Source: Escherichia coli (GTDB lineage Bacteria; Pseudomonadota; Gammaproteobacteria; Enterobacterales; Enterobacteriaceae). Taken from it: a DNA stretch of 64,000 nucleotides. The DNA is taken from assembly GCF_030013595.1 (NCBI RefSeq), contig NZ_CP122768.1, one strand, 5' to 3'. Numbering within the stretch: the first letter of the stretch is position 1; each line of letters opens with the position of its first letter. Made by a program: the position numbers. Positions 6,001 to 9,000 of this stretch are shown here, one piece after another.

Positions 6001-9000
6001 TGTTGAAACAAATGACGGTAGAGAATGTTAACACTGCCGTTAAACAATATCTTTCTCATCCGGTGAATACCTATACCGGAGTATTATTGCCAAAATAATA
6101 ACAGCCCCGTCAACACCTCGTTGGCGGGGATTTTAGCAATATTCGCTATTTTTATGTAATAATTTTATAAATGCGTTCAAAATAATAACCAAGTACTAAT
6201 AGTGATATTTTAAGGACTGATTTTTACGTGATAATTCAGGAGGCGTAGAAAGCGCATAAAAATAACAACATAAAACACTTTACCACCACCAAAAAATTCT
6301 CTATTGCATTGTTTTTTAATGAAAAAGCATTATTCTCGTAATATTTCACGATAAATAACATTAGGATTTTGTTATTTAAACCCGAGTCCTTTGCACTTGC
6401 TTACTTTATCGATAAATCCTACTTTTTTAATGCGATCCAATCATTTTAAGGAGTTTAAAATGGATAAGAAGCAAGTAACGGATTTAAGGTCGGAACTACT
6501 CGATTCACGTTTTGGTGCGAAGTCTATTTCCACTATCGCAGAATCAAAACGATTTCCGCTGCACGAAATGCGCGATGATGTCGCATTCCAGATTATCAAT
6601 GACGAATTATATCTTGATGGCAACGCTCGTCAGAACCTGGCCACTTTCTGCCAGACCTGGGACGACGAAAATGTCCATAAGTTGATGGATTTATCCATTA
6701 ACAAAAACTGGATCGACAAAGAAGAATATCCGCAATCTGCAGCAATCGACCTGCGTTGCGTAAACATGGTTGCCGATCTGTGGCATGCGCCTGCGCCGAA
6801 AAATGGTCAGGCCGTTGGCACCAACACCATTGGTTCTTCCGAGGCCTGTATGCTCGGCGGGATGGCGATGAAATGGCGTTGGCGCAAGCGTATGGAAGCT
6901 GCAGGCAAACCAACGGATAAACCAAACCTGGTGTGCGGTCCGGTGCAAATCTGCTGGCATAAATTCGCCCGCTACTGGGATGTGGAGCTGCGTGAGATCC
7001 CTATGCGCCCCGGTCAGTTGTTTATGGACCCGAAACGCATGATTGAAGCCTGCGACGAAAACACCATCGGCGTGGTGCCGACTTTCGGCGTGACCTACAC
7101 CGGTAACTATGAGTTCCCGCAACCGCTGCACGATGCGCTGGATAAATTCCAGGCCGACACCGGTATCGACATCGACATGCACATCGACGCCGCCAGCGGT
7201 GGCTTCCTGGCACCGTTCGTCGCCCCGGATATCGTCTGGGACTTCCGCCTGCCGCGTGTGAAATCGATCAGTGCTTCAGGCCATAAATTCGGTCTGGCTC
7301 CGCTGGGCTGCGGCTGGGTTATCTGGCGTGATGAAGAAGCGCTGCCGCAGGAACTGGTGTTCAACGTTGACTACCTCGGTGGTCAGATTGGGACTTTCGC
7401 CATCAACTTCTCCCGCCCGGCGGGTCAGGTAATTGCACAGTACTATGAATTCCTGCGCCTCGGTCGTGAAGGCTATACCAAAGTACAGAACGCCTCTTAC
7501 CAGGTTGCCGCTTATCTGGCGGATGAAATCGCCAAACTGGGGCCGTATGAGTTCATCTGTACCGGTCGCCCGGACGAAGGCATCCCGGCGGTTTGCTTCA
7601 AACTGAAAGATGGTGAAGATCCGGGATACACCCTGTACGACCTCTCTGAACGTCTGCGTCTGCGCGGCTGGCAGGTTCCGGCCTTCACTCTTGGCGGTGA
7701 AGCTACCGACATCGTGGTGATGCGCATTATGTGTCGTCGCGGCTTCGAAATGGACTTTGCTGAACTGTTGCTGGAAGACTACAAAGCCTCCCTGAAATAT
7801 CTCAGCGACCACCCGAAACTGCAGGGTATTGCCCAGCAGAACAGCTTTAAACATACCTGATAACGTTTAACGGTAACGGTGTCCCGAAACGAACCCGTTT
7901 CGGGACAATTTCCAAAGTCTGTTCACTGGCATTAGCAACGGAAAATATTGTTCTGAATACGCTTCAGAACAAAACAGGTGCGGTTCCGACAGGAATACCG
8001 TTTTAGGGGGATAATATGGCTACATCAGTACAGACAGGTAAAGCTAAGCAGCTCACATTACTCGGATTCTTTGCCATAACGGCATCGATGGTAATGGCTG
8101 TTTATGAATACCCTACCTTCGCAACATCGGGCTTTTCATTAGTCTTCTTCCTGCTATTAGGCGGGATTTTATGGTTTATTCCCGTGGGACTTTGTGCTGC
8201 GGAAATGGCCACCGTCGACGGCTGGGAAGAAGGTGGTGTCTTCGCCTGGGTATCAAATACTCTGGGGCCGAGATGGGGATTTGCAGCGATCTCATTTGGC
8301 TATCTGCAAATCGCCATTGGTTTTATTCCGATGCTCTATTTCGTGTTAGGGGCACTCTCCTACATCCTGAAATGGCCAGCGCTGAATGAAGACCCCATTA
8401 CCAAAACTATTGCAGCACTCATCATTCTTTGGGCGCTGGCATTAACGCAGTTTGGTGGCACGAAATACACGGCGCGAATTGCTAAAGTTGGCTTCTTCGC
8501 CGGTATCCTGTTACCTGCATTTATTTTGATCGCATTAGCGGCTATTTATTTGCACTCCGGTGCCCCCGTTGCTATCGAAATGGATGCGAAGACCTTCTTC
8601 CCTGACTTCTCTAAAGTGGGCACCCTGGTTGTATTTGTTGCCTTCATTTTGAGTTATATGGGGGTAGAAGCATCTGCAACCCACGTCAATGAAATGAGCA
8701 ACCCAGGGCGCGACTATCCGTTGGCTATGTTATTGCTGATGGTGGCGGCAATCTGCTTAAGCTCTGTTGGCGGTTTGTCTATTGCGATGGTCATTCCGGG
8801 TAATGAAATCAACCTCTCCGCAGGGGTAATGCAAACCTTTACCGTTCTGATGTCCCATGTGGCACCGGAAATTGAGTGGACGGTTCGCGTGATCTCCGCA
8901 CTGCTGTTGCTGGGTGTTCTGGCGGAAATCGCCTCCTGGATTGTTGGTCCTTCTCGCGGGATGTATGTCACAGCGCAGAAAAACCTGCTGCCAGCGGCAT

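Follow-up and report, generated by a model that had tools for sequence, protein, structure and literature searches.

The window, by which we mean the whole 64-kb stretch of DNA analyzed, contains the gadBC locus of an Escherichia coli chromosome. The genes run in the order yddA-yddB-pqqL-gadB-gadC-digH-dosC-dosP according to the annotation of strain 118UI, with which the window is collinear from position 1 to ~47.7 kb, and the order pqqL-gadB-gadC is also found in K-12. A megablast search with positions 6100 to 6700 matched 5,425 of 5,426 complete E. coli genomes, and the best matches were annotated as gadB. Judged from its sequence, including the GadB-type N terminus MDKKQVTDL, the gene 3' of the regulatory element considered here, with its start codon at 6460 to 6462, is gadB and not gadA, which belongs to the acid fitness island, outside this locus, and has a second copy of the element. 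The features recognized in and around the gadB promoter are as follows.

6213-6232, plus strand: GadX/GadW-like motif AGGACTGATTTTTACGTGAT, tentatively assigned, with 2 mismatches to the ChIP-exo motif AKGKCTGWTWTTWWYMYVAK
6351-6459, plus strand: conserved block of the promoter that begins 10 nt before the box and extends to the end of the 5' UTR, with 2 of 109 columns variable and a mean pairwise difference of 0.9%
6354-6385, plus strand: equivalent of the K-12 GadE ChIP-exo peak, mapped through the gap-free alignment of K-12 and the window and enclosing the box
6361-6380, plus strand: GAD box of the gadBC promoter, a 20-bp activator site (the RcsB/GadE heterodimer site by the K-12 literature), an exact copy of the published 20-mer
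6397-6402, plus strand: -35 hexamer TTGCTT, beginning 16 bp after the box
6410-6421, plus strand, limits approximate and inferred from the text of the original paper: RcsB box (repression site) CGATAAATCCTA, adjoining the -10 hexamer
6420-6425, plus strand: -10 hexamer TACTTT, with a 17-bp spacer from the -35 hexamer, invariant in 13 of 13 Escherichia promoters
6432-6434, plus strand: expected transcription start, transferred from K-12, for which the published numberings lie 1 to 2 nt apart
6448-6453, plus strand: Shine-Dalgarno sequence AAGGAG of gadB, read from the sequence and the same in K-12 gadA and gadB
6460-7860, plus strand: gadB, glutamate decarboxylase B, intact, 466 aa, identical to K-12 GadB at 466 of 466 residues
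8016-9551, plus strand: gadC, glutamate:GABA antiporter, intact, 511 aa, with no internal stop and 3 substitutions relative to K-12

Placing the GadE peak on the window involved an offset between K-12 genome versions, which we take to be 1,976 bp.

The 20-mer TTAGGATTTTGTTATTTAAA at 6361 to 6380 matches the published GadE site (PMC4918353) at 20 of 20 positions, and the site has been described as the GAD box of the K-12 gadBC promoter (Castanie-Cornet and Foster 2001 and Ma et al. 2003, as cited in PMC2887963 and PMC4918353). It is the single match in the window when both strands are searched with up to 3 mismatches, compared with a mean of 0.01 matches in dinucleotide-preserving shuffles. The site is noncoding, as pqqL ends at 6098, and no open reading frame of at least 60 aa overlaps positions 6361 to 6380. 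An RNA element at this site was also considered and was excluded, the pqqL-gadB intergenic region having no match to an Rfam family.

When window positions 6099 to 6480 are aligned with the promoters of K-12 gadB and gadA, the same 20-mer is seen in all three, and from the box to the ATG there are zero indels relative to K-12 gadB. All 11 E. coli alleles compared (the window, K-12, 118UI, and eight others chosen to cover the range of divergence) have 79 nt between the box and the ATG. In gad promoters, the GAD box has been placed 16 bp upstream of the -35 hexamer (PMC2887963); here 6380 is the last base of the box and 6397 the first of TTGCTT, which gives the same 16 bp, and this spacing is kept in 13 of 13 Escherichia promoters. 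The GAD box has further been described as a 20-bp consensus whose center lies 63 bp before the start sites of gadA and gadBC (PMC2887963). With the start carried over from K-12 by alignment, the center of the box in the window falls between -61.5 and -63.5, according to the published +1 that is adopted: the numbering of the ChIP-exo table (PMC4918353) puts the start 28 nt before the ATG, at 6432, and the "centered 63 bp upstream" description (PMC2887963) puts it at 6433 to 6434.

The initial annotation had proposed a canonical GAD box upstream of gadB, to be checked against the gadA/gadB promoter alignment and to be given up if the 20-mer lay at the wrong distance from the gadB start. The exact 20-mer in front of a gene whose product is identical to K-12 GadB, the agreement among the window, K-12 gadB, and K-12 gadA, and the K-12 distances to the ATG and to the transcription start (a center ~62 to 63 nt from the latter) all bear this proposal out, and positions 6361 to 6380 very probably represent the canonical GAD box of the gadBC promoter. 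Relative to the K-12 gadBC promoter, the 20-mer, the 79-nt distance to the ATG, the -35 hexamer, the RcsB box, the -10 hexamer, the 5' UTR, GadB, and the gene neighborhood are all the same; the promoter differs by a C at 6382, two bases 3' of the box, where K-12 has an A. Over the entire 360-bp intergenic region, the window is 94.5% identical to K-12-type strains, with every difference except 6382 located upstream of 6351. Compared with K-12 gadA, the 20-mer, the 16-bp spacing, and the -10 hexamer are the same and the RcsB box is nearly so, whereas the flanks on either side of the box are unrelated.

The core promoter downstream of the box is weak by sequence, since TTGCTT and TACTTT each agree with the sigma-70 consensus at 3 of 6 positions. 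A generic sigma-70 scan of positions 6050 to 6500 did not report the gadB promoter because of these poor hexamers, and the scan is uninformative here. Weak hexamers would suit a promoter whose activity requires an activator bound upstream. The RcsB box has been located just upstream of the -10 hexamer, and the gadB copy is the same except for a C in place of G at its left end (PMC2887963); over 6410 to 6421, the window carries this gadB form, CGATAAATCCTA, and is identical to K-12 gadB.

How the GAD box is bound is known from K-12, in which gadA and gadBC have GadE as their central activator, working through this box (PMC2887963). On the K-12 gadA promoter, MBP-GadE alone gave no protection, whereas RcsB and GadE together protected positions -50 to -76, including the box, so that in vitro the box is bound by an RcsB/GadE heterodimer and not by GadE alone (PMC2887963). 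Changing a conserved G of the box to C in gadA abolished both the complex and GadE-dependent activation; these direct binding experiments were performed on gadA, not on gadB (PMC2887963). For gadBC itself, a K-12 GadE ChIP-exo peak at 1570144 to 1570175 (numbered on the older K-12 genome version), listed as known and activating, is centered at -62.5 (PMC4918353, supplementary table), and deletion of gadE at pH 5.5 changed gadB expression by log2 -6.44 (~87-fold) and gadC expression by log2 -5.85 (K-12; PMC4918353). In comparison with the RcsB/RcsAB box, the GAD box is asymmetric and requires GadE as a partner; by itself, RcsB recognizes the separate box beside the -10 hexamer and not the GAD box. 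The genome-wide GadE motif derived from ChIP-exo data, TTARGAWWWWAAATA (PMC4918353), shares with the box a core of TTAGGA plus AT-rich sequence and is looser than the 20-mer. At up to 2 mismatches, it has 5 matches in the window versus 3.1 expected by chance, none of them at the box, and it is therefore too loose to be useful here.

Taken together with these data, the best explanation of the site is, with high confidence, an RcsB/GadE-activated GAD box of gadBC, which by analogy with K-12 would act in the same way in this strain. A heterodimer of GadE (LuxR family) and RcsB at the GAD box would switch on a weak promoter of the sigma-70/sigma-S type, and the activated promoter would drive expression of gadB (glutamate decarboxylase) and gadC (glutamate/GABA antiporter) and thereby glutamate-dependent acid resistance. 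Two phrases of the initial annotation need adjustment in this light. Its designation of the 20-mer as a GadE target leaves out RcsB, the species that binds being the RcsB/GadE heterodimer (PMC2887963). Its statement that the operon has its normal regulatory input is supported for the part in cis, where the box, the -35 hexamer, the RcsB box, the -10 hexamer, the 5' UTR, gadB, and gadC are all intact, and it is to be read as limited to that part because gadE, rcsB, gadX, gadW, and rpoS are located outside the window.

Among the 11 E. coli alleles, the box shows no variation (0 of 20 columns). The two variable columns of the conserved block at 6351 to 6459 are 6381 and 6382, just 3' of the box. 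Immediately upstream, in the intergenic stretch from 6200 to 6350, 47 of 152 columns (31%) are variable and the mean pairwise difference is 12.4%, values that are inflated in absolute terms because divergence in this very region was the basis for choosing the alleles; the contrast within the region is unaffected. The flanking pqqL and gadB coding sequences have 4.8% variable columns and mean pairwise differences of 1.6 to 1.9% in the same alleles. On a larger scale, the 30-mer at 6351 to 6380 was found in 5,364 of 5,426 complete E. coli genomes (98.9%). One of the genomes without it is that of E. coli AR_0085, in which a natural deletion (locus L012, positions 2900 to 3100) has joined a truncated ydeN (sulfatase) gene to the promoter of gadB. 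The deletion has removed pqqL, yddB, yddA, and 15 of the 20 bases of the box and has left the -35 hexamer, the -10 hexamer, gadB, and gadC intact, and it offers a picture of a locus without the normal input.

To look beyond E. coli without selecting on the box, we scanned a collection of species-representative genomes with the ribosome-binding-site/start-codon anchor TTTAAGGAGTTNNAAATGGA, which would miss Escherichia genomes with an altered ribosome-binding region. The anchor recovered 100 loci, namely, 11 Escherichia promoters of the gadA/gadB type and 89 chance matches in unrelated taxa. The 11 promoters come from E. albertii, E. whittamii, Escherichia sp. E1V33, Escherichia sp. MOD1-EC7003, and two genomes labeled E. 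coli, and their best GAD box matches have 0 mismatches (n = 7) or 1 mismatch (n = 4) and lie 79 to 80 nt from the ATG. The 89 loci from unrelated taxa served as negative controls, and their best matches to the box have at least 6 mismatches. When the window and K-12 gadA are added, giving a set of 13 Escherichia gadA/gadB promoters, 18 of 20 columns are invariant in the box, compared with 0 of 40 immediately upstream of it and 1 of 16 between the box and the -35 hexamer. We also observed an 8-bp perfect inverted repeat, AAATAACA (6353 to 6360) and TGTTATTT (6370 to 6377), that brackets the left half of the box in E. coli gadB promoters; it is probably incidental, because gadA and most of the other Escherichia gadB promoters lack it.

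Several other explanations of the 20-mer deserve consideration. It could be mainly a site for the AraC-family regulators GadX and GadW, in competition with GadE or in place of it, with GadE/RcsB being secondary at gadB. According to a summary of earlier work in PMC6128205, GadW and GadX can repress by competitive binding to GAD box sequences, and GadX ChIP-exo peaks are indeed present in the region upstream of gadBC. Those peaks in K-12, however, are at -184, -225, and +66 (PMC4918353), off the box, where the GadE peak is centered. Deletion of gadX changed the expression of gadB and gadC by only about log2 -0.6 (~1.5-fold for gadB; K-12, PMC4918353), against the ~87-fold effect of the gadE deletion on gadB, and the GadX/GadW motif AKGKCTGWTWTTWWYMYVAK has no match in the box, its match being at 6213 to 6232. 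We therefore regard a primarily GadX/GadW-bound 20-mer as very improbable.

Still less credence can be given to the idea that the identity of the 20-mer between gadA and gadB is a leftover of duplication or gene conversion with no regulatory role. It has in its favor that gadA and gadB are near-identical paralogues whose promoters share sequence from the -35 hexamer on, yet gadA and gadB do not resemble each other in the 16-bp spacer or anywhere upstream of the box, and these flanks have diverged among species around a box that has stayed constant. Homogenization of the paralogues is unlikely because a single conversion tract that reached the box should presumably have homogenized the spacer as well, and a remnant devoid of function is already contradicted by the point mutation in the gadA box that abolishes the complex and GadE activation (PMC2887963). 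Finally, an AT-rich 20-mer might be expected to turn up by chance in an intergenic region that is itself AT-rich. The match is, however, exact over 20 of 20 positions, shuffled sequences give only 0.01 matches even with 3 mismatches allowed, and all of the E. coli alleles examined have it at exactly the same position; the box is an isolated island of constraint, and chance is thereby effectively excluded, as the weakest of all these explanations. Nothing in the sequence contradicts the explanation as the RcsB/GadE-activated GAD box.

The variable stretch upstream of the box is where the K-12 GadX peaks at -184 and -225 are located. The GadX/GadW motif AKGKCTGWTWTTWWYMYVAK has one match in the window, at 6213 to 6232 with 2 mismatches, where 0.30 matches are expected by chance and 29 of 100 shuffles contain at least one; this match coincides with the mapped position of the K-12 peaks at -184 and -225. 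Our statements on GadX and GadW draw on the ChIP-exo table and the motif. A T-to-A change at 6216, a conserved position of the GadX/GadW-like motif, is common only to the window and 118UI among the 11 alleles, and other lineage-private single-nucleotide differences were observed at 6279, 6291, 6294, 6327, and 6345. As a further qualification of the normal regulatory input, the upstream part of the intergenic region, where these GadX peaks map, differs from that of K-12 by ~5.5%. It represents a minority allele, as at least 99% identity was found in 283 of 5,406 records (~5%) and 90 to 95% identity in 4,866. A literature search on polymorphism between pqqL and gadB found nothing specific. The box, its spacing, and the core promoter, which make up the GadE/RcsB input, appear to be fixed in E. 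coli, and nearly so in the sampled Escherichia, and the adjacent 150 bp, with inputs from GadX/GadW and probably H-NS, appears unusually polymorphic. We speculate that this could reflect lineage-specific retuning of secondary gadBC inputs around a constant master input, an interpretation that we consider unlikely on balance.

The GAD box at this locus is already known and ordinary, and its recognition has little importance beyond annotation. In this strain, as in 98.9% of complete E. coli genomes, the main operon for glutamate-dependent acid resistance has retained its cis element and core promoter, and its genes are intact. Two by-products of the comparison are a clean phylogenetic footprint, with sharp limits of the 20-mer, and the observation of much greater variability in the regulatory DNA next to the box on its upstream side than in the flanking genes.

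Some further features were observed elsewhere in the window. The yddB gene (886 to 3258), which encodes a TonB-dependent receptor of 790 aa in 118UI, has a premature stop at 1141 to 1143 in the window, where codon 86 is TAG instead of CAG, and the gene is split into open reading frames at 886 to 1143 and 1204 to 3258. From 48180 to 58906, an island of ~10.7 kb containing VgrG, an Rhs core, and an ISAs1 remnant (a type VI secretion effector locus) stands in place of a different PAAR-VgrG segment in 118UI. A query spanning 47500 to 59500 was covered to at least 80% in only 89 genomes, and the best match was 99.8% identical, in two pig isolates. Only two Rfam matches were found in the window, namely, the Hfq-binding small RNA isrA at 49086 to 49214 on the minus strand (112.6 bits), inside the variable island, and a SECIS element at 30121 to 30179 on the minus strand (84.3 bits), in the region of the formate dehydrogenase-N (fdn) genes. 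At ~45436 to 45468, the IS1397 copy that 118UI carries between nhoA and yddE is missing from the window, and from 25727 to 26148, around the yddM (higA) toxin-antitoxin pair, the window and 118UI align only piecewise.
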